Positions 4,912-62,295 of a DNA stretch of 64,000 nt are shown here, in pieces. A model generated the notes under the pieces. That model was not told where the DNA came from. It did no database searches and saw only the letters and a program-made list of their open reading frames with translations. Each line of letters opens with the position of its first letter. Position 1 is the stretch's first letter. This stretch comes from Gammaproteobacteria bacterium (GTDB taxonomy: Bacteria; Pseudomonadota; Gammaproteobacteria; PS1; Pseudothioglobaceae), in contig OZ242267.1 of the NCBI GenBank assembly GCA_965207335.1, positions 835,729-899,728 on the forward strand. Direction: 5' to 3'. A program made the translations under genes and the position numbers.

Positions 4912-4922
4912 ATTATTTAGGT

Positions 4923-8614: not shown

Positions 8615-8718
8615 GACCTTTACATAAATAGGGATGATTAGCAGAGCTCTGATTTTTGCTTAATGTCAGTGAGTGGAAACGGGGTTCTGATGATTATTCA
8701 TGTTTGTGCAAAGGTCTC
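8613..8718. mobile_element. MITE copy (internally deleted, 106 bp)
   Basis: Termini GAGACCTTTACATAAATA / CATGTTTGTGCAAAGGTCTC. Flanks AATAT / AATAA (4 of 5). The sbcB stop codon TGA overlaps the first two bases. Confidence 0.8.
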
Positions 8719-8787
8719 AATAAGTTTAACATTGTAATATTTTTTAATTATGGTATAATATTATGCTTTTTAACAGACTTTGTTATT

Positions 8788-9462
8788 ATGGATGCAAATG
8801 CAAGATATAAACTTTTTGCGAAATTATTGGAAAAAAACCCAAATCCTTCAACAGAGTTAAAATATAATACTCCATTTGAATTATTAGTAGCAGTAACTTT
8901 ATCTGCACAAGCAACAGATGTTAGTGTTAATAATGTTACCGATAAATTATTTTTAATTGCTAATACTCCAGAAACAATATACGAATTAGGCGAAGACAAA
9001 CTAAGAGAAATTATTAAAACCATTGGTTTATTTAATTCTAAGGCAAAACACATAGTCCAAACCTGCAAAATACTAATAAACAAATATAATAGCGAAGTAC
9101 CAGATACTAGAAAAGATTTAGAATCGCTACCCGGTGTTGGTAGAAAAACTGCCAATGTGATTTTAAATACAGTATTTGGACAACCAACTATTGCTGTTGA
9201 TACTCATATTTACCGTGTTGCTAATAGAACTGCTTTAGCATCTGGTAAAACTGTGCTGGAAGTTGAGAAAAAACTTATTAAGTTTATCCCAGATGAATTT
9301 AAAGTTGTAGCACACCACTCACTTATATTGCATGGTCGTTATACTTGTTTTGCTCGTTCTCCCAAATGTAGTGAATGTATATTACTTGATTTATGTGAAT
9401 ACGAGGAAAAGAACTTACCTAACGATAAAAAAACTCCCAAAAAAGAGTTGATGGAGCAATAA
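8788..9462 (+). CDS. nth: Endonuclease III
   Basis: HhH-GPD motifs LPGVGRKTANVIL and DTHIYRV, plus C-terminal 4Fe-4S cysteines CFARSPKCSECILLDLC. Start moved to the ATG at 8788 because the longer ORF reads through the MITE. Confidence 0.9.
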   Translation: MDANARYKLFAKLLEKNPNPSTELKYNTPFELLVAVTLSAQATDVSVNNVTDKLFLIANTPETIYELGEDKLREIIKTIGLFNSKAKHIVQTCKILINKYNSEVPDTRKDLESLPGVGRKTANVILNTVFGQPTIAVDTHIYRVANRTALASGKTVLEVEKKLIKFIPDEFKVVAHHSLILHGRYTCFARSPKCSECILLDLCEYEEKNLPNDKKTPKKELMEQ

Positions 9463-10135: not shown

Positions 10136-10142
10136 ATATATT

Positions 10143-10306
10143 GAGACCTTTGTACAAACATGAATAATCATCAGAACCCCGCTTTTCACTCACTTGATAA
10201 TTTTTATCAAACCAGCCTTAGAACAACTAGGACAGACTTAATAGAAAATCATCAATTAAGCAAAAATCAGAGCTCTGCTAATCACCCCTATTTATGCAAA
10301 GGCCTC
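10143..10306. mobile_element. MITE copy (full length, 164 bp)
   Basis: Termini GAGACCTTTGTACAAACA / TATTTATGCAAAGGCCTC. Exact 5-bp duplication ATATT at 10138-10142 and 10307-10311. Confidence 0.9.
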
Positions 10307-10340
10307 ATATTTGTACAACACTAAACATAACATAGACAAT

Positions 10341-12631: not shown

Positions 12632-12961
12632 TTAATAACCACCCTTTCTTTTTGTTTCTGGTAGTCCGGCTATTTTACCTGCCTGTTTAGCAGGTCCCTT
12701 AGGGAATAAAGTATATAATACCTTAGTGTCTAATTTACCCTGCCAGTCGCCTTTTAATGCCTTAACTATATTTCTTTCATTTGGTTGATTATTATTATTA
12801 TTTATGTACTCATCTCTTAAATAATTAATAACTTTAAAACTTAACTCATTAAGTTCAACACCAATCTCAAGTGCTATTTCGTTAGCAATATCATCATTCC
12901 ATTCATCTAAATTAACTAAATAACCATTATCTGTTCTTTCTAAATTTGCCAAAGACATCAA
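12632..12961 (-). CDS. TusE/DsrC-family protein lacking the C-terminal cysteines
   Basis: GYLVNLDEWNDDIA..LFPKGPAKQAGKIAGLP matches the DsrC/TusE fold signature. The tail ends PETKRKGGY and contains no Cys. Confidence 0.75.
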   Translation of the reverse strand: MMSLANLERTDNGYLVNLDEWNDDIANEIALEIGVELNELSFKVINYLRDEYINNNNNQPNERNIVKALKGDWQGKLDTKVLYTLFPKGPAKQAGKIAGLPETKRKGGY

Positions 12962-13402
12962 TACCTCCTAAAAATCAAAGTGAAAATTGTAATGTATTTT
13001 AAATTAATAATCAACATAAAAATGCAAAATATAGCAAACTACTACTAAATAATAAGATTAGGATTTTGGGTATTATGTTTTTAGCACTGTTTTTTATGTG
13101 TGTGTTTTCGCTTAGAATAAAATATAAATTAAATTTAAAATAATAAGTTAAATAATTTTACCAAGTAAAAAACTTGTTAGGCTACTTTATAAGGATTATT
13201 TATTTATGCAAAGGTCTCAACATAGTTAAAAATAGTGCCTAACATATAAATATTTTAGGTAGTGATTTTAAAAACTGTTAAAATATTGCAAAATAAAAAT
13301 ACTGTATTAGGAGACCTTTGCATAAAAATATTTTTTATAAGCCTTACTTGTGTGTATAAGTTTTGCCTGATATAGTTACATTAAAATTATATAAAAATTT
13401 CT

Positions 13403-14221
13403 ATGATTAGTTTTGAATTTTTTCCACCAAAAGATAATACTAGTGCTGATAATTTAAAAGCAGTACAAACAAAATTAGCACAAATAAAGCCAGAATATTT
13501 TTCTGTGACTTTTGGTGCTGGTGGTGGCACAAGAGATAAAACCTTAAAAACTATTCTTGCTATTAATAACAATTATGATATTCCAGCATGTCCACATATA
13601 TCTTGTATGTACTCAAACAAAGCAGATATTAATAATTTATTAACAACATACAAAAAACATAATATCAATAAATTAATAACACTAAGAGGTGATACCCCAC
13701 TTACAATGAAAACTAACGGGGATTTTCATTATGCCTACCAATTAATAGAATTTATCAGGGATAATTTTGGTAATTATTTTGATATAAAAGTAGCCGCATA
13801 CCCAGAAAAACATCCACAAGCAAGTACTATTAATGCAGATATAAAATATTTTATCAATAAGGTAAAAGCTGGTGCTAACAGTGCTATTACCCAATACTTT
13901 TATAATACTGATGCTTATTTTAGTTTTTGTGATGAGGTTAATAAAGAGATAGATATAGAAATAATTCCAGGCATTATGCCTATTACTAACTATGTGCAAT
14001 TAAATAGTTTTTCTAAATTATCAGGTACTCAAATCCCTAAATGGATTTTAAATAAATTAATATATTATCAAGATGACTTACAAAGTTTAAGGTCGTTTGG
14101 CTATGATGTGGTGGCTAATATGTGTGCTAAATTACAATCACAAGGGGTTAATAATTTTCATTTTTATAGTATGAATAAAGCAGAACCATCATATTCTTTG
14201 GCTAATAATATAAAAAACTAG
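13403..14221 (+). CDS. metF: 5,10-methylenetetrahydrofolate reductase
   Basis: SFEFFPPK..YFSVTFGAGGGTRDKT..ITLRGD..AAYPEKHP motifs. Confidence 0.9.
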   Translation: MISFEFFPPKDNTSADNLKAVQTKLAQIKPEYFSVTFGAGGGTRDKTLKTILAINNNYDIPACPHISCMYSNKADINNLLTTYKKHNINKLITLRGDTPLTMKTNGDFHYAYQLIEFIRDNFGNYFDIKVAAYPEKHPQASTINADIKYFINKVKAGANSAITQYFYNTDAYFSFCDEVNKEIDIEIIPGIMPITNYVQLNSFSKLSGTQIPKWILNKLIYYQDDLQSLRSFGYDVVANMCAKLQSQGVNNFHFYSMNKAEPSYSLANNIKN

Positions 14222-14879: not shown

Positions 14880-16093
14880 ACAATATTATAAAATTTTAAT
14901 ATATCTCCGCTAGAAAATCGGCTATTTTCTGGTATTTCTACTACTCCATCTGCCCATACTAAAGAGCTTAAAACATCAGAACTTTGCTTAGGATAAAGGT
15001 ATGCAACAGGTATAGCATCTTCATATTTTAGCCTAACTCTAACAAACTCTCGTCTTCTTTGTGCTTGTACAGAAAAATTAATTTTAACTAGAATATGTTT
15101 ATTAGCAATATTTTTATTGCCTTGTAGTTTACGAATAAATGGTGTTGCGAATACAAAAAATGTTACTATAGCAGATACCGCATTACCTGGTAAGCCAATA
15201 AAATGGGTATCATTAATATTGCCAAAAGCAAGTGGTTTACCGGGCTTTACATTAATACGCCATAACTGTAATTTGCCTAACTTTTCTACTGCTGGTTTAA
15301 TGTAGTCTTCTTCGCCAACCGACACTCCGCCTGTTGTGATAATTAAATCACATTTTTTACTTAATTTTAATAAAACATCACAAGTAGCAGTAAAATCATC
15401 GGCTATATTGCCTAGGTTTATAATGTTACAATTCAGGTTTTTTAATAATGCTATTATGCTATAACTATTGGAATTATATATTTTACCGTGTTGTAATTTC
15501 TCTCCAGGTTGTAACAATTCATTGCCAGTAAAAAATACTCCAACTGTTAATTTAGGCGACACTGCTACTTTATCTATACCAACAGATGCAATTATGGCTA
15601 TATCTTGGGGTTTTAATTGAGTGCCTTTTGTGAGAATTATATCGCCTTTTTTAATATCATTTGCCTTAGGGCGAATATTTTCCTGATGTCTGGGCTTTCT
15701 TGCTATAACAACACTATTACCATTGTCAGCCAACTCGCATTCTTCTTGCATGACTACTGCATAAGTATTATTAGGTGTAGGTGCCCCAGTAAATATTCTA
15801 GCCGCACAATTATTATCAAGACTATTACCTACCTCGCCTGCTGTTATTCTTTGCTTTATGCTTAATTTATAAGGTGGTTTATCGTTATCATTAATAGCAC
15901 AGGCAAAGCCATCCATAGCAGAATTATTAAATTCTGGCACATTAATACTAGACTTAATATCCTTAGCTAAAATACAACCTAAAACTTCATTTAAAGATTT
16001 TATGGTGCTATTTGTTTTAGGGTTTGCTTGTTTTAATAAAAAATCTAGCGCATCATCAATGGCGATTAATTTATTAGTTAGAGACCTTTGCAT
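14867..16093 (-). CDS. moeA: Molybdopterin molybdenumtransferase MoeA
   Basis: MoeA motifs SAMDGFA, IFTGAP, TGGVSVGEEDY, KPGKPLAFG. The only in-frame ATG (16093) lies inside the MITE terminal repeat. Confidence 0.9.
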   Translation of the reverse strand: MQRSLTNKLIAIDDALDFLLKQANPKTNSTIKSLNEVLGCILAKDIKSSINVPEFNNSAMDGFACAINDNDKPPYKLSIKQRITAGEVGNSLDNNCAARIFTGAPTPNNTYAVVMQEECELADNGNSVVIARKPRHQENIRPKANDIKKGDIILTKGTQLKPQDIAIIASVGIDKVAVSPKLTVGVFFTGNELLQPGEKLQHGKIYNSNSYSIIALLKNLNCNIINLGNIADDFTATCDVLLKLSKKCDLIITTGGVSVGEEDYIKPAVEKLGKLQLWRINVKPGKPLAFGNINDTHFIGLPGNAVSAIVTFFVFATPFIRKLQGNKNIANKHILVKINFSVQAQRRREFVRVRLKYEDAIPVAYLYPKQSSDVLSSLVWADGVVEIPENSRFSSGDILKFYNIVCVN

Positions 16094-16244
16094 AAATAGG
16101 GGTGATTAACAGAGCTCTGATTTTTGCTTAATTGATGATATTCTATCAAGCCTGCCCTAGTTGTTCTAAAGCTAGTTTGATAAAAATTGTTAAGTTGGTG
16201 AAAAGTGGGTTTTTGATGATTATTCATATTTATGCAAAGGTCTT
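16081..16244. mobile_element. MITE copy (full length, 164 bp)
   Basis: Termini GAGACCTTTGCATAAATA / TATTTATGCAAAGGTCTT. Flanks AGTTA / GGTTA (4 of 5). Confidence 0.85.
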
Positions 16245-27625: not shown

Positions 27626-27789
27626 GAGACCTTTGCATAAATATGAATAATCATCAGAACCCCGCTTTCCACTCACTTGATAATCTTTATCAAACCAGCC
27701 TTAGAACAACTAGGGTAGGCTTAATAGAATATCATCAATTAAGCAAAAATCAGAGCTCTGCTAATCATTCCTATTTATGCAAAGGCCTC
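27626..27789. mobile_element. MITE copy (full length, 164 bp)
   Basis: Termini GAGACCTTTGCATAAATA / TATTTATGCAAAGGCCTC. Exact 5-bp duplication ATAAA (27621-27625 and 27790-27794). Confidence 0.9.
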
Positions 27790-27803
27790 ATAAAAAAATT
27801 AAA

Positions 27804-33644: not shown

Positions 33645-33869
33645 TTATTCTTTTTTTATATATATTACTATCTCATTATTGCTTTCAATAATTTTAGTAA
33701 TTTTATGATTATGAACACTGCACCAAGCTGGTATATCGTGAAGTACGCCTTTATCTGTTGCTAGCATTTTTATAGTATCACCTATAGCTATTGTTGTTAT
33801 TTTCTCATGTAAGCGAATAACTGGCATAGGACACAATAATTTTCGCACATCTAGGATATATTCTTGCAT
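33645..33869 (-). CDS. TusA/SirA-family sulfurtransferase-like protein
   Basis: 74 aa with the CPMP active-site motif (LLCPMPVIRL). Confidence 0.8.
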   Translation of the reverse strand: MQEYILDVRKLLCPMPVIRLHEKITTIAIGDTIKMLATDKGVLHDIPAWCSVHNHKITKIIESNNEIVIYIKKE

Positions 33870-34301
33870 AAATAAATTTGTTATATTATTTTATGAGTAG
33901 ATTTTAACACTAAATAAAACTACTACACTAAGCGATTAGGTTGGGCTTTGAGGTATTATGTATGAAACAATGCTTTTTAGATGTATATACTTTCTTGGGA
34001 GTAAATATGAGTTAAAGTTAAAGCAATTACTTAATCATTATCCCAAATAAACAACCTATTAGGCAACTGCACAAGGACTGCTTTTTATATTTAATGCGAC
34101 AGTATTCCAAATTTTATATTGTCTAGTTTAAATAATAAAACATTTGATGTATAAAAAAAAATTAATACTACTGTGCTAAGCGATAATATTGCCGTATTTT
34201 AATAATCAAACTATCATTGGATCTGCTTTTAACTGAGTGCGAAACTCCTTGTCAAATATTCTATTATTAATCATTTTATTTCCATCCTTAAATTTCATAT
34301 A

Positions 34302-34658
34302 TTATGGTTTAATACTACTTGCTGTTGTTAGTGTCCCTACCGTACTAGCAGTACCGAATGTGCCAATTGTAACACCAGCAACAGTACCTAATGTGCCAAC
34401 TGTGCAGCCAGCTGAACTTAATGAGCCAGCTGAACCTACCGTAGCACCAGCACTCAATATATTTTGCATATCTTCTTGTTTAATATTGCTATCAAAGTAA
34501 GGAATAACAACATAAAATATATCCTTACTAGATTCAACAACTTTGTATTCTAAATCCTCAAAATCAGCATCAACTAGTTTACTAAGTTGCAATTTTGGGT
34601 TTGCTTTTAATTGAGCACGAAATTTTTTATCCAATAATTTATCCATGTAATCTTCCAT
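34302..34658 (-). CDS. RiPP-precursor-like peptide: nitrile-hydratase-type (NHLP) leader plus Gly/Thr/Ser-rich core (copy 1)
   Basis: AGGAG 5 nt upstream of the ATG. Leader features NPK..DFEDLEYKVVESSKDIFYVVIP as in NHLP leaders. After ..NILSAGA comes the core TVGSAGSLSSAGCTVGTLGTVAGVTIGTFGTASTVGTLTTASSIKP. Paralog at 45701-46030. Confidence 0.65.
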   Translation of the reverse strand: MEDYMDKLLDKKFRAQLKANPKLQLSKLVDADFEDLEYKVVESSKDIFYVVIPYFDSNIKQEDMQNILSAGATVGSAGSLSSAGCTVGTLGTVAGVTIGTFGTASTVGTLTTASSIKP

Positions 34659-34752
34659 TATTACTCCTAATTATAAATTAATTTTTACTTGTAGTAATTG
34701 TAAACTGATAATACATAAAAGATTTACATTTAACATATAGTAATATAAAGTA

Positions 34753-34813: not shown

Positions 34814-35269
34814 CTATAATAAATTATTTTTTTTTGCTTTTTCTACTGGATTTTTATCCTTAATCCACGATACAATACCATTGTCTAGGTTATAAATATT
34901 TGTATAGCCTAATTCATTTGCTAATAAGGCACTTACTTCTCTTGAGCGGTATCCATGAGCACAAACTATGGCTATTGCTTTGTGTTGAGGTATAAATTGA
35001 AATTTACTTTTAATGAGCTCTGTTTTTAGTTTTTGCTTTCTATCTTTGGTAAATGTAGTTAATAATTTACTATTTGGCAAAACACCTGTTTGTATCCATT
35101 CACTTAAATAACGCACATCAATAATAGTAACATCATTATTTTTTATAAGTTCTGATAATTCAATATTACTAACATTGGTATATAAGTTTTTACTAAACAT
35201 ATTACTAAAACTAAATGCAGAAATTACTATAATAACAATGATAGCAATAATTATATTTTTAGCATTCAT
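34814..35269 (-). CDS. Membrane-anchored or secreted rhodanese-domain protein
   Basis: N-terminal hydrophobic segment. IIDVRYLSEW and active-site loop CAHGYRS. Confidence 0.8.
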   Translation of the reverse strand: MNAKNIIIAIIVIIVISAFSFSNMFSKNLYTNVSNIELSELIKNNDVTIIDVRYLSEWIQTGVLPNSKLLTTFTKDRKQKLKTELIKSKFQFIPQHKAIAIVCAHGYRSREVSALLANELGYTNIYNLDNGIVSWIKDKNPVEKAKKNNLL

Positions 35270-35374: not shown

Positions 35375-36691
35375 CTAATCGCTTAATGTAATAGTATTCT
35401 TTAATGCTCCAACATTAACTACTAGCCAAATATTATCCTTAAAAAATTTATTGCTGGCATTAATTATTTGTTGTTTTTGTAACTTAGTTATTTTTTCTGG
35501 GAAATTTTTAATATAATTTATGTCTAAGTTATAAAATCCAATTACTGCCAAATAACTAGCTATTTGCCTGTTAGTAGCAATTCTTAATGCAAAACTACCA
35601 ACAATATTATCTTTGGCATCTTGAATTTTTTTATCACTAATATTAGTTAAAAAATCATTTACAGTTTGAAAAACTAAATTAATAGCTTTGTCTTTGCTGG
35701 CATTTTTAGTTTGCAAATTAATTAAAAAATACCCATTAGCCGCCATAGGTAAAAAATAGCTGTGAACACTATATGCCAAGCCATTTTGCTCACGAATAAC
35801 ATAACCTAACTGGGAATTTAATACCCTACCACCTAAAATATGATTTACTAAGTACAAAGCATAATAATCAGGGTAATCTCTATTGATACCTGTTTTACCT
35901 ATTAAAATATGATTTTGAGTTGATGGATAGTCAATATTTAATATTTTTGATGCTGATAATGGCATTATTTTATTGATAATGGATGGTTTTTTACCTATTG
36001 GTAGATTATGGCTTAACTGCCTAGATATACTTTTTGCTTTTGCTCTTGTTATGTCGCCTACTATTACTATTACTAGATTTTTAGCAACATAATATTTACT
36101 ATAAAAATCTCTAATATCGTTGATAGTTATGTTTGTGATACTGGCAGTTGTACCTAAAACATTATGTGCATAGCTATGATTAGCAAACACTTCATTAGCA
36201 AATGCCTGACTTGCTATCTCACTAGGATTAGTTTGACTTCCTTTAATAGTATGTAAATACTGTTTTTTTAATCTAGTTAGGGTTTTATTAGTAAATTTAT
36301 TATTGGTTATTAACTCTTTTAACAAATTAACACTTCGTTGTAACACGCTATCTTGGGCTAGACTTCTAAGTGATATTATAGCCATATCCTTAACGGCTGA
36401 GGTAGAAAATATTGCCCCAATCTCGTTAAAACCTGTATTTATTTGTTCTTCATTATATTTTTTACTACCAGTACCTATCATAGCATTAGTAATATTTGCT
36501 AAGCCAAATTTATCATAATCACGGCTAGATGCTCCATCAAATACCAACTTAATATCAACAATATTATTGTCTTTAACATGACTAAACAATACTTTAGCAC
36601 CTTCTGGGGTATGCCATACTTGAATATTAGGTGTGGCAAAAACTAAGTTGGCAATAGTCAATAAAGTTATTATTAAAATTGTGTTTATCAT
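35375..36691 (-). CDS. M16-family (insulinase/pitrilysin) peptidase subunit lacking HxxEH (non-catalytic partner)
   Basis: Signal peptide. M16 C-terminal-domain architecture with no zinc motif. 4-nt overlap with the catalytic partner. Confidence 0.8.
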   Translation of the reverse strand: MINTILIITLLTIANLVFATPNIQVWHTPEGAKVLFSHVKDNNIVDIKLVFDGASSRDYDKFGLANITNAMIGTGSKKYNEEQINTGFNEIGAIFSTSAVKDMAIISLRSLAQDSVLQRSVNLLKELITNNKFTNKTLTRLKKQYLHTIKGSQTNPSEIASQAFANEVFANHSYAHNVLGTTASITNITINDIRDFYSKYYVAKNLVIVIVGDITRAKAKSISRQLSHNLPIGKKPSIINKIMPLSASKILNIDYPSTQNHILIGKTGINRDYPDYYALYLVNHILGGRVLNSQLGYVIREQNGLAYSVHSYFLPMAANGYFLINLQTKNASKDKAINLVFQTVNDFLTNISDKKIQDAKDNIVGSFALRIATNRQIASYLAVIGFYNLDINYIKNFPEKITKLQKQQIINASNKFFKDNIWLVVNVGALKNTITLSD

Positions 36692-38028
36692 ATATTTTTG
36701 ATACTAGGTATTAATTCAACTGTTGATCTATTATTTTTAATAAGATACTTTATAGCAATATTTTGCACATCCTTAGCACTAATATTATTAATTTTATCAA
36801 CATACTCTGTGCTTACTTTATAGCCTAAACCTATTGCTTCAAGAACACCTAAATAATATGCTTGAGTTTTAATAGAATCTTGACTATAAATATATTCTGC
36901 TTGTGACTGGGTTTTAATATTGCTTAAAATATTATTATCAATGACTTTGTTTTTAATATTGGCTATTACCCCATCAATTACTTTAACTATTTTATCAATA
37001 CTTATATTTTCTATTGGTGAAAAGCTAATTTTTAAATTAGTAGCGTATTTATCATAAATATAATAACTTACTGCTACAAAGTTTACTAATTGTAACTCTC
37101 TTACTAACAACTTGGTTAAAATAGCATTATCATTACCAGTTAGCACATAAGATAGCATCTCTAAGGCATAAGCATCATTGCTATTACTAGTGCTATTTAA
37201 ACTAGGTACAGGATATGACATAACAAAATATGGGTTTTTAGCTACTAAAGTCAAGCTAGAATTTTGTGCTAATTTTGGATATGATTGAATATATTTAGAC
37301 TTAGGATAATAAGGGCTAATATGAGAAAAATATTTTTTGACTAAGCTATAAACCTCTTTGACATCAACATCTCCTACTACCACGATAATAGCATTATTAG
37401 GACTGTAATACTTTTTATACCAATTACTTAATTCTGCTAACTTGAGGCTTTTTAAATCATCCATAATACCAATAATTGGATAATAATAAGCACTATTTTT
37501 ACTATAAGATATTTTTGATAATTTCTCGTAAACCTTAGCTATAGGATTATCTTCAACTAGCAATCTTCTTTCTTCTATTACCACATCTCTTTCGGTTTTA
37601 AAATCTTGCTCTTTTAATAATAAATTTTGCATTCTATCTGCTTCTAGTTTTAGACTTATCTCTAAATTATTACTATTCATCATTTGATAATAAGCAGTAT
37701 AATCTCTGGAAGTAAAGGCATTATCAGTACCACCATTTTTGGCAATAATCTTAGAAAACTCTCCAGTATTATAATTTTTAGTTCCCTTAAACATCATATG
37801 CTCTAACATATGCGATATGCCTGTTGTGCCTAACTCTTCATAACTTGAGCCAATCTTATACCAAATCTGAGATATAAATATTGGTGCTCTATGGTTTTCT
37901 TTTACTATTAATTTTAAGCCATTGTCAAAATTAAACTCACTAATACTAGCATGTGTTGTTGGTGTTAATAACAAGCAAAAAATACTGCTAAGTATAAAAA
38001 CTATATTTTTTAAATAATTTGTATTCAT
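36688..38028 (-). CDS. M16-family zinc peptidase, catalytic subunit
   Basis: Signal peptide. Inverted zinc motif HMLEHMMFKG (HxxEH) and downstream EERR-type motif VVIEERR. Confidence 0.9.
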   Translation of the reverse strand: MNTNYLKNIVFILSSIFCLLLTPTTHASISEFNFDNGLKLIVKENHRAPIFISQIWYKIGSSYEELGTTGISHMLEHMMFKGTKNYNTGEFSKIIAKNGGTDNAFTSRDYTAYYQMMNSNNLEISLKLEADRMQNLLLKEQDFKTERDVVIEERRLLVEDNPIAKVYEKLSKISYSKNSAYYYPIIGIMDDLKSLKLAELSNWYKKYYSPNNAIIVVVGDVDVKEVYSLVKKYFSHISPYYPKSKYIQSYPKLAQNSSLTLVAKNPYFVMSYPVPSLNSTSNSNDAYALEMLSYVLTGNDNAILTKLLVRELQLVNFVAVSYYIYDKYATNLKISFSPIENISIDKIVKVIDGVIANIKNKVIDNNILSNIKTQSQAEYIYSQDSIKTQAYYLGVLEAIGLGYKVSTEYVDKINNISAKDVQNIAIKYLIKNNRSTVELIPSIKNI

Positions 38029-39228: not shown

Positions 39229-39966
39229 TCAAGAACCAGCGGTGGCTTTTTCACCGTACGAGTTGCTTGGCTTGTTAGATTTTTTCTCTGTTGCCTTTAT
39301 ACCAGCAACACCAATAATGCTTTCTAAATGCTTTTGTCTCTCATGCTTAGCTATGTACCAATCTTTCATAAGAATCTCTATTAAGCCTATTAATAGTTGT
39401 GCTTCTTCGGGGTCAACATCAATAATTAAATTGATATCTTTTTCCATGTGAGCACCAATATTCCCGATACTTCGCACAGCGTCAATTGCTTGCCATATTA
39501 TTGGGTCAACTTTATCCTGAATATCCCTGATCTCATCAACAAGGCGCCCTTTTTTAATGCCAAAGAAATCGCGAATAATTCCTTGCAGACAGCGCCTAGA
39601 TAAAGTTGCGGATGCTTTTGGGCTCAATGCCTTTATAAGACAGGCTTCTTCATAATCAGCAATAATCGCCTGTGGTATAAATGATGGAAATTGTTTGGCT
39701 AAAGAGCTTGGCTTTAGATTCCATTCGAATCTTTTTGAATTTGGCGTGATTCTATACCCGTTGGAGTAGTTAGCAGAATGAAGAGAGCCTTTTATTTCGT
39801 ACTCTTTACATTCATCACTTGGACAAGTTATTACCTCGGTAACAATTACAGACATACCATCTTTATTGTCCTCATCAAATACATGTAAATTTTGACTGTA
39901 ATTAGAGTCGGTGATGGTCGCTTCTTTATTACAATAAGGGCATGCCCAATTGAATTTTATTGCCAT
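39229..39966 (-). CDS. Zinc-ribbon plus DUF4145 (HEPN-related) domain protein
   Basis: N-terminal CPYCNK..CPSDECKE. C-terminal AIADYEEA..SPKASATLSRRCLQ..AVRSIGNIGAH fits the DUF4145 pattern. Visibly higher G+C than its neighbours. Confidence 0.65.
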   Translation of the reverse strand: MAIKFNWACPYCNKEATITDSNYSQNLHVFDEDNKDGMSVIVTEVITCPSDECKEYEIKGSLHSANYSNGYRITPNSKRFEWNLKPSSLAKQFPSFIPQAIIADYEEACLIKALSPKASATLSRRCLQGIIRDFFGIKKGRLVDEIRDIQDKVDPIIWQAIDAVRSIGNIGAHMEKDINLIIDVDPEEAQLLIGLIEILMKDWYIAKHERQKHLESIIGVAGIKATEKKSNKPSNSYGEKATAGS

Positions 39967-40718: not shown

Positions 40719-43046
40719 CTAGGCATTTTTAGCCTTGTATTTAGTTTTTGACTTAGATTTTTTGATTTGTGTTATTTTGCCAGCTATGGCATCTTCACAT
40801 TCTTTTAGGCTTAGACTGTTTGGTTCTTTGTCGCCAAAAAACTTTTTAATAGTAATATTTTTTTGTCCCTTACCGCGTTTTTTGCCATTACTTATATAGG
40901 CGCCAAATCGTCCATTTAAAACCCTAATATCTGATTTATCAAAAGTTTTAATTATTAACTCTTTATCCTTTTTTTCTTTATCGGCTATTAGTTGTAGTGC
41001 TGTTTCTAGACTAACAGTTTCTGGGGTTTCTTCTTTTAATGATACATACTTCTTACCGTATTGAATATAAGGACCAAATCGTCCATAATTTGCCTTTATA
41101 GGTAGTCCATCATCAGTATTACCAACTAATCTTGGTAGTTTAAATAATTCTAATGTTTCTTCTAGGGTTATAGTCTCTAAATTTTGTCCTTTTTTCAGGC
41201 TAGCAAATATAGGTTTTTGTTCGTCGTCTTTGTCTCCTATTTGTGCAAAAGCCCCATAACGACCTAATCTAAGTGTTATATCCTTACCACTATCAGGGTC
41301 AATTCCTACTACTCTTGCATTATTCAATTCTTGTTTTGATAAATTACTAGCAAATTCTACCTGTTCATGAAACATAGTGTAAAAATCGCTTACTATCTTG
41401 TGCCAAATTTTATTTTTATTAGCTATTGCATCAAAATCAACCTCTAAATTAGCACTAAATTGATAATCAACTATATTGTTAAAGTATTTTTTTAAAAAAT
41501 CGGTTAGTAGATAGGCAACACTAGTCGGTAATAATTTATTTTTATCATTATTAAATACTTCTACTATTTTGATTGCTATAAATTTATTTTGTTTAATTTG
41601 CAATAAATTACACTCTCTTTCTACCCCATCTATATTTTCTTTTACTATGTAGCCTCGTTCTTGTACTGTTGAAATCATTGAGGCAAAAGTAGAAGGTCTT
41701 CCTATACCCATCTCTTCAATTTTTTTTACCAAACTAGCCTCAGTATAGCGAGGTTTTGGCTTGCTAAATGTTTCTTTGGCATCAAGGGTGTCAATTGTTG
41801 GGTTTTGGTTTATTTTTAACTCTGGTAGTAATTTATCTTTGCTTGTATCAAAATCATAAACCTTTAAAAATCCAGCAAATTTTAGTACCTCTCCCTCCGC
41901 TATAAAAACCTCATCTTTATTAGCAATACTAATAACTACTTTAGTTTTGTCTAATATAGCACTAGACATTTGTGATGCTAGAGTGCGTTTTCTAATTAAA
42001 TTATATAGCTTTTCTTCTTTTTCATTAGCACCTAATGAAGTTTTACTAAGGTCAGTAGGTCGTATGGCTTCGTGTGCTTCTTGAGCGGAGCTATTTTTAG
42101 TTTTATAATGGCGAGGATTAGCATAATCACTACCATATTTATTAGTTATAATACTTTTTGCACTTGCTAATGCAATATCAGATAAATTAAGCGAGTCTGT
42201 TCTCATATAAGATATATGACCATCACGATATAAATTTTGTGCTAGTGTCATAGTTTGTTTAACAGAAAAACCTAGTTTTTGTGATGCTTCTTGTTGTAAA
42301 GTAGAAGTCATAAAAGGCGGGGAAGGACTTTTTTTGCTAGGCTTAGTTTTAATATCAGTTATTTGTAGTTTAGCATTTAATAAATGCTTAACAAACTCTT
42401 CTGTTTGCTGTTTGCTTGCAAAACTTTTATTAAGTTTTACCAAAAATTTGCTATTATTGCTAATTAACTCAGCTTTGATTTTGTATGTTGTTTCTGCTTT
42501 AAAATTAGTTATTTCTTGCTCTCTTTCTACTACTAAACGCACAACTGGTGATTGCACCCTACCTGCTGATTTTGCACCAGATATTTTTCTCCATAATATT
42601 GGTGATATTTCAAAGCCAACTAAACGGTCAATAATTCTTCTTGCCTGCTGGGCATGTACCAAAGGCATATTAACGACTCTAGGATTGGTAATTGCATATT
42701 TTATAGCTGGCTTAGTTATTTCGTGAAAAACAATTCTACTAGTATCTTCTGGTAATTTTAATGCCTCTAATAAATGCCATGCTATTGATTCACCCTCTCT
42801 ATCCTCATCAGTTGCTAGATATACTTTAGTGGCTTCTTTAGCTAGTTTTTTTAGTTTACTTACTATTGATTTTTTGCTAGGGCTTATCTCATATGTAGGC
42901 TTAAAAGAGTTTTTAATATCAATGCCCATATCTTTTTTAGACATATCGCGAATGTGTCCTACACTGGACTCAACCACAAAATCATTGCCTAAAAATCCCT
43001 TAATAGTATCTGCTTTAGCAGGGGACTCTACAATTACTAATTTCAT
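40719..43046 (-). CDS. topA: DNA topoisomerase I
   Basis: Toprim MKLVIVESPAKA..ATDEDREGE, active-site region SYMRTDS, C-terminal repeats GRFGPYIQYG / GRFGAYISNG. Confidence 0.95.
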   Translation of the reverse strand: MKLVIVESPAKADTIKGFLGNDFVVESSVGHIRDMSKKDMGIDIKNSFKPTYEISPSKKSIVSKLKKLAKEATKVYLATDEDREGESIAWHLLEALKLPEDTSRIVFHEITKPAIKYAITNPRVVNMPLVHAQQARRIIDRLVGFEISPILWRKISGAKSAGRVQSPVVRLVVEREQEITNFKAETTYKIKAELISNNSKFLVKLNKSFASKQQTEEFVKHLLNAKLQITDIKTKPSKKSPSPPFMTSTLQQEASQKLGFSVKQTMTLAQNLYRDGHISYMRTDSLNLSDIALASAKSIITNKYGSDYANPRHYKTKNSSAQEAHEAIRPTDLSKTSLGANEKEEKLYNLIRKRTLASQMSSAILDKTKVVISIANKDEVFIAEGEVLKFAGFLKVYDFDTSKDKLLPELKINQNPTIDTLDAKETFSKPKPRYTEASLVKKIEEMGIGRPSTFASMISTVQERGYIVKENIDGVERECNLLQIKQNKFIAIKIVEVFNNDKNKLLPTSVAYLLTDFLKKYFNNIVDYQFSANLEVDFDAIANKNKIWHKIVSDFYTMFHEQVEFASNLSKQELNNARVVGIDPDSGKDITLRLGRYGAFAQIGDKDDEQKPIFASLKKGQNLETITLEETLELFKLPRLVGNTDDGLPIKANYGRFGPYIQYGKKYVSLKEETPETVSLETALQLIADKEKKDKELIIKTFDKSDIRVLNGRFGAYISNGKKRGKGQKNITIKKFFGDKEPNSLSLKECEDAIAGKITQIKKSKSKTKYKAKNA

Positions 43047-43052
43047 TATTGT

Positions 43053-43211
43053 GAGGCCTTTGCATAAATAGGGGTGATTAGCAAAAGTTCAATTTTTGCC
43101 GAATTAGTGATTTTATTAAACCTTGTCCTAGGGCTAAGGCTAAGTTTAATAAAATTGCTAAGTTGGTGAAAAGTGGGTTTTTGATGATTATTCATATTAT
43201 GCAAAGGTCTC
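43053..43211. mobile_element. MITE copy (subtype B interior, 159 bp)
   Basis: Termini GAGGCCTTTGCATAAATA / CATATTATGCAAAGGTCTC. Flanks ATTGT / ATTGG (4 of 5). The smg stop codon overlaps the right terminus. Confidence 0.85.
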
Positions 43212-43698
43212 ATTGGATTGTTTGATGATGCTCATCTAAAATTACTGCTTCTAGCCATGCATTAGAATAATTATTGTTAGAATTATTGCCTAAAACCATA
43301 ATTACTACCCATTTAAAATCATTTAAGGATATGTCTTTGGTGTTTAATGAGGTTACTTGTGAGATAATTAGCTCTCTTTGCATAGGATCTAATAAGCCTA
43401 TATTTTCTAAAAAAAACAAAAAATTACGATTTTTTAAATTTATTTTTTGTTTTTCTTGCTCTGAATAAACACGCAAACTCTCATTATTAATAGCAAATGG
43501 TGTTATCTTACCATCTTGTAATGCTGAGATATTATCTAGCCATTTAAGTGCCATATGTATGCCTTTTTCATCAAATCCAGCATTTGCTAAATGGTTTTCT
43601 AGCATAGTGTCATCAATTTCTTCTTCACTGTTTGTTGCTTCAAATATGTAATCAAACATAAAGTTTAGAACATCTAAAATATTGTGATTATTTATCAT
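43210..43698 (-). CDS. smg: Smg (DUF494) protein
   Basis: ILDVLNFMFDYIFE N-terminus. Conserved position between dprA and topA. Confidence 0.85.
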   Translation of the reverse strand: MINNHNILDVLNFMFDYIFEATNSEEEIDDTMLENHLANAGFDEKGIHMALKWLDNISALQDGKITPFAINNESLRVYSEQEKQKINLKNRNFLFFLENIGLLDPMQRELIISQVTSLNTKDISLNDFKWVVIMVLGNNSNNNYSNAWLEAVILDEHHQTIQ

Positions 43699-45700: not shown

Positions 45701-46030
45701 ATGGACAAAAAACTATCACAACAATTAATAAGCAACACTAAAATACGCAAAGAATTTATTCAAAATCCAAAGCAATTATTGCATAAATACGATAATAGAG
45801 ATTTTGATGATGTTGATATTATCGTCAAGGAAAACACACTAACTACATTTTATTTTGTTATTCCAGATTATGATAAAAAATTAGATTTATCAACTATTAA
45901 TGCTGCTAAGGCCGCATTAGGAACATTAGCTTGCATAGGAAGTGTTGGCTCGTTTGCTTGTGTAGGTGGGTGTGTGTCTTCTGTTGGTTCAATAGGAACT
46001 ACAAGCACTGCCTTGCCATCACGTTTTTAA
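45701..46030 (+). CDS. RiPP-precursor-like peptide: NHLP-type leader plus Cys/Gly/Ser-rich core (copy 2)
   Basis: Leader NPKQLL..DFDDVDIIVKENTLTTFYFVIP..INAAKA. Core ALGTLACIGSVGSFACVGGCVSSVGSIGTTSTALPSRF has three Cys. Isolated between long AT-rich spacers. Confidence 0.65.
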   Translation: MDKKLSQQLISNTKIRKEFIQNPKQLLHKYDNRDFDDVDIIVKENTLTTFYFVIPDYDKKLDLSTINAAKAALGTLACIGSVGSFACVGGCVSSVGSIGTTSTALPSRF

Positions 46031-48667: not shown

Positions 48668-50365
48668 CAACCTGTAATTGCTGTTAGGGGTTTGGGGATA
48701 TTCCCCAAAGTAAGCTTTGCTTACTATTAATCGCATTACAACCAACACACTGGTACCAATTATTCCCACTGTCATTGCGAACACTGCTTTTTAGTGTGTG
48801 GCAATCTCAGGCAAAATACTGGTACTAATCACACCGCTTTTATAGGATGAGATTGCCACGCTTTTTACAAAGGCTTGCAATGACGGTGGGTATAATTCTA
48901 ATTTGTTATTATGGGTGCTTTTTTTAAACCACACCACGAATTATCTCACGACAAAAATATAAATTACAAGCACAATGTATATATGGGGAGTTTGAGGGGC
49001 AGTTGTACCATAGTTGTAATGAAGGAATGAGTTCTGCCCCTCAATTAAAAAAACAATTGCTGTTAGGGGTTTGGGGATATTCCCCAAAGTAAGCTTTGCT
49101 TACTATTGTGGGTACTTTTTATATATCGTCATTGTAAGCACTGTTTTTTGTGTGTGGCAATCTCAGGCAATTATACTGTTATTAAATTACACCGCTTTTG
49201 TAGCACGAGATTGCCACGCTTTTTTACAAAAACTCGCAATGACAGTGGGTATAATTCCAATTTGTTATTGTGGGTGCTTTTTTTAAACCACACCACGAAT
49301 TATCTCACGACAAAAATATAAATTACAAGCACAATGTATATATGGGGAGTTTGAGGGGCAGTTGTACCATAGTTGTAATGAAGGAATGAGTTCTGCCCCT
49401 CAATTAAAAAAACAATTGCTGTTAGGGGTTTGGGGATATTCCCCAAAGTAAGCTTTGCTTACTATTGTGGGTACTTTTTATATATCGTCATTGTAAGCAC
49501 TGTTTTTTGTGTGTGGCAATCTCAGGCAATTATACTGTTATTAAATCACACCGCTTTTATAGGATGAGATTGCCACGCTTTTTTACAAAAGCTCGCAATG
49601 ACGGTGGGTATAATTCTAATTTGTTATTGTGGGTGCTTTTTTTAAACCACACCACGAATTATCTCACGACAAAAATATAAATTACAAGCACAATGTATAT
49701 ATGGGGAGTTTGAGGGGCAGTTGTACCATAGTTGTAATGAAGGAATGAGTTCTGCCCCTCAATTAAAAAAACAATTGCTGTTAGGGGTTTGGGGATATTC
49801 CCCAAAGTAAGCTTTGCTTACTATTGTGGGTACTTTTTATATATCGTCATTGTAAGCACTGTTTTTTGTGTGTGGCAATCTCAGGCAATTATACTGTTAT
49901 TAAATTACACCGCATTTGTAGCATGAGATTGCTACGCCTTTTACAAGTCTCGCAATGACGGTGGGTATAATTCTAACTTGTTATTGTGGGTGCTTTTTTT
50001 AAACCACACCACGAATTATCTCACGACAAAAATGTAAATTACAAGAACAATGTCTATATGGGGAGTTTGAGGGGCAGTTGTACCGTGAATTGTAATACGA
50101 AAACTTGTTCTGCCCCTCAATTAAAAAACAATAAAACAACTTAATACAAACTAAACAACCTGTAATTGCTGTTAGGGGTTTGGGGATATTCCCCAAAGTA
50201 AGCTTTGCTTACTATTTTAGGTAATTTTTTTTATATATCGTCATTGTAAGCACTGTTTTTGTGTGTGTGGTAATCTTAGGCAATTATTCCATTATTAAAT
50301 TACACCGCATTTGTAAGATGAGATTGCCACGCCTTTTATAAAGGTTAGCAATGACGGTTAGTATA
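48668..50365 (+). repeat. Largest palindromic-module array, containing a 359-bp composite unit in tandem (about 3.3 copies, 48927-50110)
   Basis: AAACCACACCACGAATTATCTCACG recurs at about 48927, 49285, 49644 and 50001. Near-identical 71-aa artefact ORFs at 49106 and 49465 are exactly 359 nt apart. Confidence 0.9.
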
Positions 50366-50934: not shown

Positions 50935-51738
50935 CAATCTTAGGCAAAATACTGGTATTAATTATATCGTGTTTGCAATATGAGATTGCCACGCCTTTTT
51001 ACAAAGTCTCGCAATGACGATATATAAAAAAAGTACCCAGAATAGTAAGCAAAGCTTACTTTGGGGAATATCCCCAAACCCCTAACAGCAATTACAAGGT
51101 GTTTAGTTTGTGTTAAGTTGTTTTATTGTTTTTTAATTGAGGGGCAGAATTAGTTCCTTCATTACAACTATGGTACAACTGCCCCTCAAACTCCCCATAT
51201 AGACATTGTGCTTGTAAGGTATATTTTTGTTGTGAGATATTAGCGGTGTGGTTTAAAAAAAGCACTAAGAATTGAGAATTGGAATAAATGCGGTGTAATT
51301 TAAAAAAGTACCCATAATAGTAAGCAAAGCTTACTTTGGGGAATATCCCCAAACCCCTAACAGCAATTACAGGTTGTTTAGTGCATATTAAGTTGTTTTA
51401 TTGTTTTTTAATTGAGGGGCAGAACTAATTCCTTCATTATAATTATTGTACAACTGCCCCTCAAACTCCCCATATAGACATTGTACTTGTAAGGTATATT
51501 TTTGTAGTGAGATATTCGCGGTGTGGTTTAAAAAAAGCACTAACAATTAATAATTAGTACCAGTATGTTGCCACACACTAAAAAAGCAGTACTTACAATG
51601 ACGATATAAAAAGTACCCAGAATAGCAAATTGGAATTACACCCACCGTCATTACGAGCCTTGATAAAGGCGTGGCAATCTCGTGCTACAAAAGCGGTGTA
51701 ATTGGCGGTAGTATGTTGTCTGAGATTGTCACACACTA
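50935..51738 (-). repeat. Palindromic-module array in inverted orientation relative to 48668-50365
   Basis: Reverse complements of the same modules, with two copies of the GAGGGGCAG hairpin module and of the CCCCAAA..AGTAAGC hairpin module. Confidence 0.9.
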
Positions 51739-57752: not shown

Positions 57753-57853
57753 GATACCTTTGCATAAATAGGGGTTATTAGCAAAATGATAGATTCTGCC
57801 GAATTGGTGAAAAGTGGGTTTTTGATTATTATTCATATTTATGCACATGTCTC
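57753..57853. mobile_element. MITE copy (subtype B, internally deleted, 101 bp)
   Basis: Termini GATACCTTTGCATAAATA / TATTTATGCACATGTCTC. Flanks ACAAT / ACGAT (4 of 5). Contains the first ATG of the downstream rhodanese gene. Confidence 0.8.
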
Positions 57854-58323
57854 ACGATATGACATATAAAGAACTAGTTGCTAATGCCTTAAAAACTATA
57901 CCCGAAGTAATGCCTTGGGATTTAATAAATGAATTTAGTAGTAAAACACCACCATTACTAGTAGATGTTAGAGAGCGAAAAGAATTTAATGCTATGCAAA
58001 TCAAAAATTCTATTCACACACCAAGAGGGTTATTAGAAAGTGCTTGTGAATGGGGTTATGATGATACTGTGCCTATATTAGCTAGTAACAGGAAACAAAA
58101 TATAGTGCTTATTTGCCGTTCTGGAAAAAGAAGTGCCTTAGCAGGAATAACTATGCAACAATTAGGCTTTAAATATATTCGTTCTTTAGCCCTAGGAATC
58201 AAAGGTTGGAATGATGCTGACTTAGAATTAATTGATAGTAATAATAATATAGTTAATGCTGATGATGCAGATAAATTACTAAATAAAAGACCCAGCAAAG
58301 AAAAATTACGACCGATAAAATGA
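57841..58323 (+). CDS. Rhodanese-domain sulfurtransferase-like protein
   Basis: LVDVRERKEF and active-site loop CRSGKRS. The start may be any of three ATGs (57841, 57847, 57859). Confidence 0.8.
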   Translation: MHMSHDMTYKELVANALKTIPEVMPWDLINEFSSKTPPLLVDVRERKEFNAMQIKNSIHTPRGLLESACEWGYDDTVPILASNRKQNIVLICRSGKRSALAGITMQQLGFKYIRSLALGIKGWNDADLELIDSNNNIVNADDADKLLNKRPSKEKLRPIK

Positions 58324-58622
58324 ACTTAATAGCTGTTATATTTTTACTATTATTGCCATTATTTAGTTATGCTAATTATAGTGTTAGCATCGGTAGTAGA
58401 GGTGTAGTGTTTGATGGCAACAACCAAACAACCGCATTAGAAGCACAATTATGCTCTGATATTCAATGTATATTTGTCCCTGATTTTGAGCTTAGTTTAT
58501 TAGGATTAAACCTAGGTGATAATGCAAAAAAAATACTAAAATCTTTACAAAAAATGGATAATAGTGATAGGGCATTTTTGTTTTATCAATTAGATAGTTT
58601 AGATAATATTAGTGACATTTAA
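58320..58622 (+). CDS. Hypothetical small secreted protein
   Basis: ATGA overlap with the rhodanese gene. Signal peptide MNLIAVIFLLLLPLFSYA. No recognisable domain. Confidence 0.4.
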   Translation: MNLIAVIFLLLLPLFSYANYSVSIGSRGVVFDGNNQTTALEAQLCSDIQCIFVPDFELSLLGLNLGDNAKKILKSLQKMDNSDRAFLFYQLDSLDNISDI

Positions 58623-60940: not shown

Positions 60941-62119
60941 TTAACTGTTAGTAACCTCTGTTAATCTTCCAATACCTTGCATAGCAACTAATTTGCCATT
61001 TATATAATACATAGCTAATTTATCTCTATACCAAGGGGGTATTTTCTGCTCTTGAATAATTTTTTTTAATGGCTGAGAGTGTTTTTTATTTTCTAATACG
61101 CAACGAATATTTTTATCTCTATAACTAATTTTTACATTTGCAATATTTGCAAAACTACTAGTTTTATCGCATTTAGGTGGAATATCACTAGTTGATATAT
61201 AAATAGTATCTTGATAGCATCTAAGTTTATATTTCCCCCAAGTTATAAGTGTTTTTGCATCTAATTTAGCATTAAGAGCATTTTTAGTTATTTGTTGTAA
61301 TACTTTACTGCTAGGCTGGATAATATTATTCACTCTAAAATAATACTTTAATACATTATTTATTCTATGGTCTGAGAGTATTTTTAACTTACTTATAATT
61401 ATATTATTATTATTTATTAACTTATAATCATTTATATCTTTTATAGCTAACTCGTTTAATAATAATAATGCTTCTTGTTGATAACTAACAGATTTATTTA
61501 TAGATTTACAAATATTATTATAGCGTTTTTCTAGTAATGGTATAACTTCTAGGCGAACAAAGTTGCGTCTAAAATCAGTATTCAAGTTGCTATCATCTTT
61601 AATATAGCATAGTTTGTGCAATTTTGCATATTTTATTATATCTACTTTTGTAGTATTTAATAGCGGGCGATATATTATTTTATTTTGTGCTGTTTTTAAT
61701 TTTGGCATAGCTGATAAACCACCAACTCCAGCACCACGAAATAATTGCAATAAAAAAGTCTCAGCTTGGTCGTTATAATGATGTGCTGTTAATAATATGT
61801 CACTGCTATTTATATTTGACAATAAGGACTTATAGCGTTTATCTCTTGCTGATTTTTCAATATTATTTTTAGCAGTTATATGAATATCAATACTTTTATA
61901 GGCAATATTGTAATTTTTGCATAACTCGTTACAAAATTTATCCCAGTTATTAGAATTTTTAGATAAATTATGATTAATATAAATAGCTTTGAGTTTTTGT
62001 TTAGGGTAGTTATTTACCAAAAAGTGTAATAATACCGTAGAATCTATGCCACCACTTAGTGCTAGTATAAGATTTTTATTTTCAAATACATTACAGTCAA
62101 TATTTAGAGGCCTTTGCAT
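60941..62119 (-). CDS. tilS: tRNA(Ile)-lysidine synthase
   Basis: PP-loop LSGGIDSTVLLH and AHHYNDQAETFLLQLFRG. The start ATG (62119) lies in the MITE terminus. Confidence 0.9.
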   Translation of the reverse strand: MQRPLNIDCNVFENKNLILALSGGIDSTVLLHFLVNNYPKQKLKAIYINHNLSKNSNNWDKFCNELCKNYNIAYKSIDIHITAKNNIEKSARDKRYKSLLSNINSSDILLTAHHYNDQAETFLLQLFRGAGVGGLSAMPKLKTAQNKIIYRPLLNTTKVDIIKYAKLHKLCYIKDDSNLNTDFRRNFVRLEVIPLLEKRYNNICKSINKSVSYQQEALLLLNELAIKDINDYKLINNNNIIISKLKILSDHRINNVLKYYFRVNNIIQPSSKVLQQITKNALNAKLDAKTLITWGKYKLRCYQDTIYISTSDIPPKCDKTSSFANIANVKISYRDKNIRCVLENKKHSQPLKKIIQEQKIPPWYRDKLAMYYINGKLVAMQGIGRLTEVTNS

Positions 62120-62268: not shown

Positions 62269-62295
62269 TTTTAACTGCATTTTATGTTTTAAAGT

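Follow-up and report, generated by a model that had tools for sequence, protein, structure and literature searches.

An unlinked precursor gene of a probable dehydrazole-type RiPP pathway in an uncultured gammaproteobacterium

Results

Two precursor genes and a leader remnant

The window analysed here, that is, the whole 64-kb stretch of DNA (G+C = 30%), carries two genes of one family of small peptides. The first, copy 1, lies on the minus strand between a TusA-like gene and a rhodanese gene, and the second, copy 2, lies on the plus strand 11.0 kb away, flanked by rpe and dsbD. The features that matter for the following are, by position:

33645..33869, TusA-like gene downstream of copy 1
34209..34301, minus strand, remnant of a second tandem precursor, 31 codons
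34302..34658, minus strand, precursor gene copy 1, ATG start, 118 aa plus stop
34305..34448, minus strand, predicted core of copy 1, G71-P118, 48 aa
34449..34658, minus strand, leader of copy 1, M1-A70, NHLP clan
34664..34668, minus strand, Shine-Dalgarno sequence AGGAG of copy 1
34814..35269, rhodanese gene upstream of copy 1
35375..38028, two M16 peptidase genes upstream of copy 1
45701..46030, plus strand, precursor gene copy 2, 109 aa
45701..45907, leader of copy 2, ending L-S-T-I-N-A-A
45908..46027, core of copy 2, with three Cys

Copy 1 is a real gene and not a chance frame. An HMM of the family, built from its relatives, scores it at E 5e-37, and a public protein collection holds exactly this protein (P0001) on a contig of 1,968,149 bp. 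An earlier, sequence-only reading of the locus had described an ATG-initiated minus-strand frame of 118 aa, which the ORF list returned with an exactly matching sequence. The strong ribosome-binding site that it named is the AGGAG, read directly from the sequence 5 nt 5' of the ATG, and the AT-rich spacers that it reported on either side of the gene measure 155 bp (towards the rhodanese gene) and 432 bp (towards the TusA-like gene). Its account of the C-terminus was equally accurate, as the last 46 aa consist to 80% of Gly, Ser, Thr, Ala and Val and contain one Cys and three TVG[ST] motifs. A promoter scan gave sites no commoner than in shuffled sequence, and a terminator scan found none.

The reading had further taken the gene to stand alone, and this needs amending: the spacers are as stated, but a leader remnant begins 3 nt after the stop codon of copy 1. 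This 31-codon frame aligns to profile positions 3-24 of the family HMM (E 2e-4), has the leader N-terminus only (..NNRIFDKEFRTQLKADP..) and is then truncated, with no continuation in any frame. It is the stump of a second tandem precursor copy. The paralog that had been placed 11 kb away, in turn, was recovered as copy 2 both with tblastn (E 7.6e-12) and with the family HMM (E 2.4e-32).

The leader of copy 1 matches the NHLP leader model TIGR03793 over residues 10-67, and its end and the start of the core follow the predicted cleavage position in the family alignment. Thus delimited, the leader ends in M(-7)-Q-N-I(-4)-L-S(-2)-A(-1), and the predicted core has 19 Ser, Thr and Cys residues, 8 G-[STC] sites and 3 Ser-[STC] sites. 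The sequence-only reading had seen the leader end near ..SAGA; a double-glycine-like spacing is present there, and the family alignment puts the predicted cut after ..ILSA70, two residues earlier. In an AF2 model based on a 49-sequence alignment, residues 1-50 have a pLDDT of 86-95, residues 51-70 one of 66-70, and the core one of 33-39, i.e., it is predicted to be disordered. A Foldseek search with this model gave no significant match, the top one being the NHLP proteusin precursor DprE2 (E = 6).

No YcaO, LanM/LanB, radical-SAM maturase or C39-ABC exporter was found among the 29 large window ORFs scanned with Pfam, which upholds the earlier statement that no maturase lies in the window (0 of 29). 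All of these ORFs have housekeeping or unrelated functions: two M16 peptidases, ftsY, topA, dprA, smg, rpe and dsbD; an ABC-type solute uptake system, tsaD and comM-like genes, moeA and an amidohydrolase; a glutamate-synthase domain protein, a TPP enzyme, sbcB, a UvrD-like helicase, a DNA methylase and a TPR protein; and a histidine kinase, a PLP decarboxylase, tilS and accA. A further window gene, which we take to be glnA from its translation read by eye, stands outside the Pfam-scanned set. Rfam and tRNA scans of the 64 kb were both empty. The M16 pair was considered as a source of the leader peptidase and set aside, because it adjoins ftsY and because no other family locus has one; such a pair is often met beside ftsY in gammaproteobacteria, as a housekeeping arrangement.

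A large family with conserved leaders and hypervariable cores

In a word-indexed homology search, copy 1 as the sole query matched only itself, and the family was exposed by an exhaustive HMMER search with the two window paralogs. It comprises 325 representative clusters at a threshold of E <= 1e-3, of which 59 remain at E <= 1e-10; nearly all are of 95-130 aa and matched from end to end. The family is uncurated, being covered by no Pfam or NCBIfam model. Counts of leader-end residues refer to the alignment of 59 sequences, which is too diverse for pattern design.

The common plan of these proteins, of 100-125 aa, is a conserved NHLP-clan leader followed by a core that is hypervariable and built of Gly-[Ser/Thr]-x triplets. 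The leader follows the pattern ..(L/Y)(D/N)K.FR..L..NPK...(I/V)E.KVV.NTKD..Y.VIP.. and ends in D(-8) L(-7) x x I(-4) x A(-2) A(-1), after which mostly Gly is found (L in 48, I in 43 and each of the two A in 48 of the 59 sequences). Compared with the double-glycine leader consensus, the spacing at this end appears to be of the double-glycine type, with Ala-Ala in place of Gly-Gly and with Ser-Ala in copy 1, whose Ser at -2 departs from the family norm of Ala and is met in 1 of the 59 sequences. The cores, of ~46 aa, are made up of 22% Ser, 17% Gly, 16% Thr, 13% Ala and 10% Val. Their triplet structure shows in the autocorrelation of Gly and of Ser/Thr, which has its maxima at lags of 3, 6 and 9 (period three), and in the number of G[STC] sites per core, which is 6.75 versus 3.13 +/- 0.16 in shuffled cores.

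That the genome should be searched for further paralogs had been proposed from the sequence, and the profile search gives at least 13 family proteins on the 1,968,149-bp contig, two of them in the window. These paralogs, like the dehydratase described below, were assigned to the source genome by the matching contig record (1,968,149 bp, same source labels). The 13 paralogs share 28-41% identity with copy 1, concentrated in the leader. Another eight family proteins are encoded on a contig of 1,517,709 bp, and more are found on contigs of 1,580,924 and 1,486,647 bp.

A divergent branch of the NHLP clan

The proposed NHLP-type leader stands at the level of the clan. Copy 1 scores 24.1 bits against TIGR03793 (E 2.3e-5), under the curated cutoff of 50.9 bits, and its next related HMM match is nitrile hydratase alpha; TIGR03793 is matched by 54 of the 59 family members (E <= 0.01, best E 3.2e-10), and distant members pass the Pfam NHase_alpha gathering threshold with 34-45 bits. 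When the family profile was compared with the PDB, it found nitrile hydratase alpha chains at E 1.2e-7 over chain residues of about 130-187, the region from which NHLP leaders derive, and the NHLP chain 8tb1 at E 3.3e-5. At the level of the family the link is thus firm, and this is a divergent subfamily of the NHLP clan that falls under the TIGR03793 cutoff. A proteusin of the polytheonamide type was considered as well and rejected, as the radical-SAM epimerase that is a feature of proteusins was found neither in the window nor in the four maturase loci described below; the sole radical-SAM gene seen was RlmN, in one of the loci of relatives (L003).

A LanM-like dehydratase in the source genome and maturase operons in its relatives

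The contig that carries P0001 and P0002 also encodes P0225, a protein of 978 aa with 48% identity to the Thioglobus LanMbC used as the query and 74% identity to P0226. Its Pfam content is DUF4135 only, and no match to PF05147 or a LANC_like domain was found in it; against TIGR03897 (LanM) it scores 278 bits versus a cutoff of 304 bits, aligned over positions 18-743 of 932. P0225 is a LanM-like dehydratase that lacks the LanC domain (LanMbC). Orthologs are present on the 1,517,709-, 1,580,924- and 1,486,647-bp contigs, and a LanMbC gene thus occurs in 4/4 of the genomes >1 Mb that carry the precursor family. The earlier supposition that a modification system is encoded elsewhere in the genome is supported by this LanMbC-type dehydratase, which shares its contig with both window precursors.

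In relatives, the dehydratase gene is part of a larger set of enzymes:

L006, uncultured Ca. Thioglobus (GCA_900180365.1): three family precursors, a transposase, a nitroreductase, a DUF4135 protein of 969 aa, a ThcOx/SagB-type dehydrogenase, one YcaO and a Nif11 precursor; the locus reaches the contig end
L008/L010, MAG Gammaproteobacteria OZ244964.1: YcaO of 809 aa, YcaO of 772 aa, SagB-type dehydrogenase of 510 aa, LanMbC of 977 aa and nitroreductase of 226 aa, with a family precursor at a distance of 8 kb on the downstream side
L009/L011: the same five genes with four to five family precursors
L012, OZ242280.1: YcaO, YcaO, SagB and LanMbC, directly followed by five tandem precursors with the family leader and unrelated cores

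The order YcaO, YcaO, SagB, LanMbC recurs in all three related complete genomes, with the small nitroreductase in two of the three. According to NCBIfam models, both YcaOs of L008 and of L012 pass TIGR03604 (SagD family; 225-244 bits versus a 219-bit cutoff) and each is fused to the TOMM leader-binding domain TIGR03882, and the dehydrogenase of both loci passes TIGR03605 (SagB). Family precursors adjoin the enzyme genes in three of the four clusters (L006, L009 and L012), where they match the family HMM at E 1e-12 to 1e-36, and lie 8 kb off in the fourth. An ABC pair for export of the NHLP type (TIGR03796, with the C39 peptidase, and TIGR03797) is situated 6-10 kb from the operon in L009; the scores are 541 bits, on a truncated product, and 669 bits versus a cutoff of 709 bits. 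No radical-SAM epimerase, methyltransferase, LanB, pyridine synthase or S8 peptidase was found in L006, L008, L009 or L012.

The closest sampled relative of the window genome is the MAG OZ244964.1, with housekeeping proteins about 80% identical. The window proteins encoded at 57841..58622 are ~80% identical to two genes that precede znuABC and the operon in OZ244964.1, and the synteny stops there. The source organism is thus a fairly close relative of OZ244964.1, and its own operon would lie elsewhere.

Family genes away from the enzymes

Other loci of relatives have family genes at a distance from any maturation enzyme:

L001: three family genes, with carbonic anhydrase and epimerase as neighbours
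L002: four family genes
L003: four family genes
L004 and L005, two Ca. Thioglobus assemblies: one family gene each, with hisH and DUF1841

Most family genes are found amid housekeeping genes, often in tandem arrays and away from any such enzyme, so that copy 1, as an orphan, is no exception within its family. Both situations can occur in one assembly, as GCA_900180365.1 has the cluster L006 as well as the orphan precursor L005 amid housekeeping genes. The uncultured source gammaproteobacterium and an uncultured Ca. Thioglobus assembly have this precursor family in common.

Discussion

Copy 1 as a probable precursor of the dehydrazole class

Taken together, the conserved leader, the periodic core, the dehydratase of the source genome and the operons of its relatives make it likely that copy 1 encodes a functional precursor peptide, unlinked to its enzymes, in a RiPP pathway of the dehydrazole type. 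Its peptide is most likely modified in trans to give a product that bears several azoles and dehydroalanines. We infer that two YcaOs, a SagB and the exporter are also encoded in the source genome, the YcaO and SagB because P0225 and P0226 are 74% identical and the operon is present in 4/4 related loci.

Dehydrazoles were defined in 2023 as peptides with NHLP-like leaders in which a YcaO and a dehydrogenase install azoles, the class being set by the enzymes YcaO, SagB and DUF4135 LanMbC, of which YcaO/SagB act first and LanMbC thereafter (Nat Commun 2023; PMC10676384). Carnazolamide from Chryseobacterium carnipullorum, made from CcaA with the YcaO CcaB, the dehydrogenase CcaC and the LanMbC CcaM, is the sole characterised dehydrazole, and no antibacterial or cytotoxic activity was found for it (PMC10676384). 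The precursors described here resemble it in their long NHLP-like leader and their core rich in Ser, Thr and Cys, and the pathway in the combination of YcaO, dehydrogenase and a DUF4135 dehydratase without a functional LanC domain. They differ in that the cores of the copy 1 family are poor in Cys and consist of Gly-[Ser/Thr]-x triplets, so that mostly (methyl)oxazoles rather than thiazoles are expected; in that the operons of the related MAGs encode two YcaOs and lack a radical-SAM epimerase, a methyltransferase and an S8 peptidase; and in that the precursors are dispersed over the genome and the leader is probably removed by a C39 ABC exporter.

Closer still is 'cluster 39' of an uncultured Ca. 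Thioglobus with its precursors A1-A3 (Supplementary Fig. 21 of PMC10676384), to which the family HMM gives 93, 66 and 52 bits; a Chondromyces dehydrazole precursor is detected by it too, at 32 bits. This cluster has the same precursor family and enzyme set, a LanMbC 48% identical to P0225 and, in the same assembly, an orphan precursor (L005); it belongs, however, to another organism and is known by bioinformatic prediction only. By its testable features, the copy 1 pathway would thus fall within the dehydrazole class and would not be a new system. The notion that a possibly uncharacterised system might be at work survives in part: the subfamily is without a characterised product, but the enzyme set is that of a class described in 2023.

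A possible route from precursor to product can be drawn on these comparisons. One of the two YcaO cyclodehydratases would bind the leader through its leader-binding domain. Ser, Thr and Cys would then be cyclodehydrated to azolines, mainly where a Gly precedes them, as it does at 8 sites of the copy 1 core, and SagB would oxidise the azolines to azoles. Ser81, Ser105 and Ser114, each of which precedes a Ser or Thr, are the candidate sites of LanMbC dehydration in copy 1. This choice of modified residues is an extrapolation from the distant Chryseobacterium system, whose core is rich in Cys. An NHLP-type ABC exporter would cut after Ala70 and export the product, and its peptidase domain (C39) is the probable agent of leader removal. 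Many dispersed precursors would in this way share a single enzyme set, as the prochlorosins share ProcM.

Alternative readings of copy 1

Because of the Ser at -2 and the decayed tandem neighbour, copy 1 could be a poor substrate or be in the course of being lost. That it is already a decaying relic, a stranded paralog that has ceased to be processed and is disappearing like the truncated copy beside it, we consider unlikely. Such decay would suit the 31-codon remnant directly downstream, the single intact copy at this place in the window versus the 3-5 intact tandem copies in the loci of relatives, and the atypical residue at the cleavage site, but the 118-codon frame is intact at 30% GC behind a canonical AGGAG site, the full periodic core is still present, and the most conserved leader positions (R14, P21, Y49, the hydrophobic residue at -7 and I at -4) are all kept. 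Orphan single copies, moreover, persist in Ca. Thioglobus as well.

The presence of the LanM-family protein P0225 among numerous dispersed precursors with conserved leaders raises the question of a prochlorosin-style library of class II lanthipeptides, in which a LanM-like enzyme would dehydrate Ser/Thr and form thioether rings without any YcaO chemistry, and the three Cys of copy 2 would fit such rings. We hold this to be very unlikely. P0225 stays under the LanM cutoff and has no LANC_like domain, copy 1 has a single Cys and 6 of the 13 paralogs have none, and the orthologs of P0225 are always in an operon with YcaO and SagB (two YcaOs in the three MAG loci). The LanMbC that has been characterised works only on a peptide that already carries azoles (PMC10676384).

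Copy 1 might instead encode an unmodified small protein, a nitrile-hydratase-like domain with a flexible Gly/Ser/Thr tail in a structural or surface role, a view that would account for most copies lying amid housekeeping genes with no adjacent enzyme and for the leader being confidently predicted as a folded unit. Against it speak the LanMbC gene in each of the four genomes >1 Mb that hold the family, the precursors that adjoin the operon in L006, L009 and L012, and the double-glycine-like processing motif conserved in the family; neither a signal peptide nor a membrane anchor was found in the precursor. Such a protein is highly improbable.

There remains the name that an automatic annotation would give. 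Copy 1 scores 29.9 bits over residues 56-98 against NF033482 (thiocillin family), above the cutoff of 25 bits, and 41 of the 59 family members match this model too. As the matched stretch runs from the end of the leader into the first part of the core, which is rich in Ser, Thr and Gly, the match suggests shared composition and not family membership, and 'thiocillin family RiPP' would be a misannotation. A thiopeptide precursor of this kind, although the expected products would likewise combine azoles and dehydroalanines, is extremely unlikely, for the Gly-rich core of 48 aa with one Cys is far longer than, and quite unlike, a short Cys-rich C-terminal core, and the LanB-type split dehydratase and the pyridine-forming [4+2] cyclase are absent from the window and from the four maturase loci.

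Kinship with other peptide families and significance

With copy 1 read as a dehydrazole-type precursor, two other groups of peptides offer instructive parallels. Microcin B17-type linear azol(in)e-containing peptides are cyclodehydrated at Gly-Ser, Gly-Thr and Gly-Cys, with a SagB-type dehydrogenase, and the copy 1 family has repeated sites of the same three kinds; it departs from them in the NHLP leader, in the extra dehydration expected from LanMbC and in cyclodehydratases that are fused to a leader-binding domain. The prochlorosins (ProcA/ProcM) of Prochlorococcus and Synechococcus provide the model of one enzyme set for many unlinked precursors with conserved leaders and hypervariable cores, an arrangement that would be repeated here. 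Their leaders are of the Nif11 type and their lanthionines are formed by a complete LanM, whereas the leader here is of the NHLP type and the LanM-like protein lacks the cyclase and would be paired with YcaO and SagB.

The precursor subfamily was already hinted at by the published Thioglobus cluster. What is new is the size of the family (about 325 clusters), the definition of its motif, the Cys-poor period-three Gly-[Ser/Thr]-x core, the predicted Ala-Ala processing site and, above all, the prochlorosin-like dispersal of no fewer than 13 precursors over a single small genome. A small gene that looked like an orphan becomes a testable substrate of a defined enzyme set, and precursors of the dehydrazole class can be numerous and unlinked, so that mining tools based on gene clusters would miss them; the thiocillin model, for its part, may mislabel members of this subfamily.

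Whether a single YcaO/SagB/LanMbC set matures the at least 13 unlinked, hypervariable precursors, so that the 1.97-Mb genome would encode a prochlorosin-style library of azole- and dehydroalanine-bearing peptides, is a proposition that we judge as apt to be right as wrong. If one enzyme set does process all of these cores, they would constitute a natural library and a useful scaffold from which azole-rich peptides could be engineered. For a RiPP class that depends on YcaO, a precursor library dispersed over the whole genome would be a first, and its oxazole-rich peptides would be unlike any characterised product.

Tandem remnant and naming of the precursor family

The stop codon of copy 1, the 118-aa precursor gene with an NHLP-clan leader, is followed after 3 nt by the start of a truncated second precursor, of which only the N-terminus of the leader is left; relatives carry 3-5 intact tandem copies.

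34209-34301, minus strand: remnant of the second tandem precursor, 31 codons

The NCBIfam thiocillin model NF033482 scored above its curated cutoff against the copy 1 protein (34302-34658, minus strand) and matched 41 of 59 relatives (E <= 0.01), and on these matches the family may receive the wrong automatic label "thiocillin family RiPP".

Repeats and possible cargo genes in the window

Intergenic MITE-like repeats (~170 bp) that carry terminal inverted repeats (TTTGCATAAATA...TATTTATGCAAAGG) were also observed, with further, partial copies elsewhere.

Window: 27626-27792, 10137-10309, 16066-16243, 43038-43214, 62103-62271, 8610-8718
L002 (a relative's locus with four family precursor genes): 7254-7429, 8761-8936

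Full-length copies share 76-92% identity inside the window and 94% with copies on another metagenome contig, and the repeat also occurs in Ca. Thioglobus assemblies (L004, L005). The two L002 copies lie ~350-500 bp upstream of precursor genes. Large tandem repeats lie in a nearly gene-free stretch of ~3 kb, in which Rfam and tRNA scans gave no match.

48771-50132: 359-bp unit, 3.8 copies (94% matches)
51027-51555: 275-bp unit, 1.9 copies

Three genes, all surrounded by housekeeping genes, may represent defence or mobile-element cargo.

2565-4124, plus strand: DNA methylase
5005-7125, plus strand: FRG domain and many TPR repeats in one protein
39229-39966, minus strand: DUF4145 protein

Maturase loci and possible leader-guided processing

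Two window genes (57841-58622, plus strand), one for a rhodanese and one for a 100-aa protein, share ~80% identity with positions 1-652 of the MAG OZ244964.1 locus (L008/L010), where the pair is followed by znuABC and then by the YcaO-YcaO-SagB-LanMbC operon (LanMbC being a LanM-like DUF4135 dehydratase without a LanC domain). Synteny is lost after 58622, where a PLP decarboxylase comes next; judged by gene order, the operon is relocated or differently inserted between the source genome and OZ244964.1.

Directly 3' of the LanMbC gene, three of the four maturase loci compared keep a small nitroreductase-family gene, absent from L012 (OZ242280.1), whose 226-aa product may act as a second dehydrogenase.

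L006 (Ca. Thioglobus, GCA_900180365.1): 4611-5291
L008: 13017-13697
L009 (related MAG locus): 12888-13568

At L012, five tandem precursors adjoin the maturase operon.

L012 13004-14656, minus strand: five tandem precursors

They have the family leader in common, almost identical among them, and wholly dissimilar cores without Gly-Ser/Thr repeats (for example, CANCASSIWRNPYSHDPFVIGATVHVSGTVVN), a combination which suggests that very diverse cores would be processed under the guidance of the leader.
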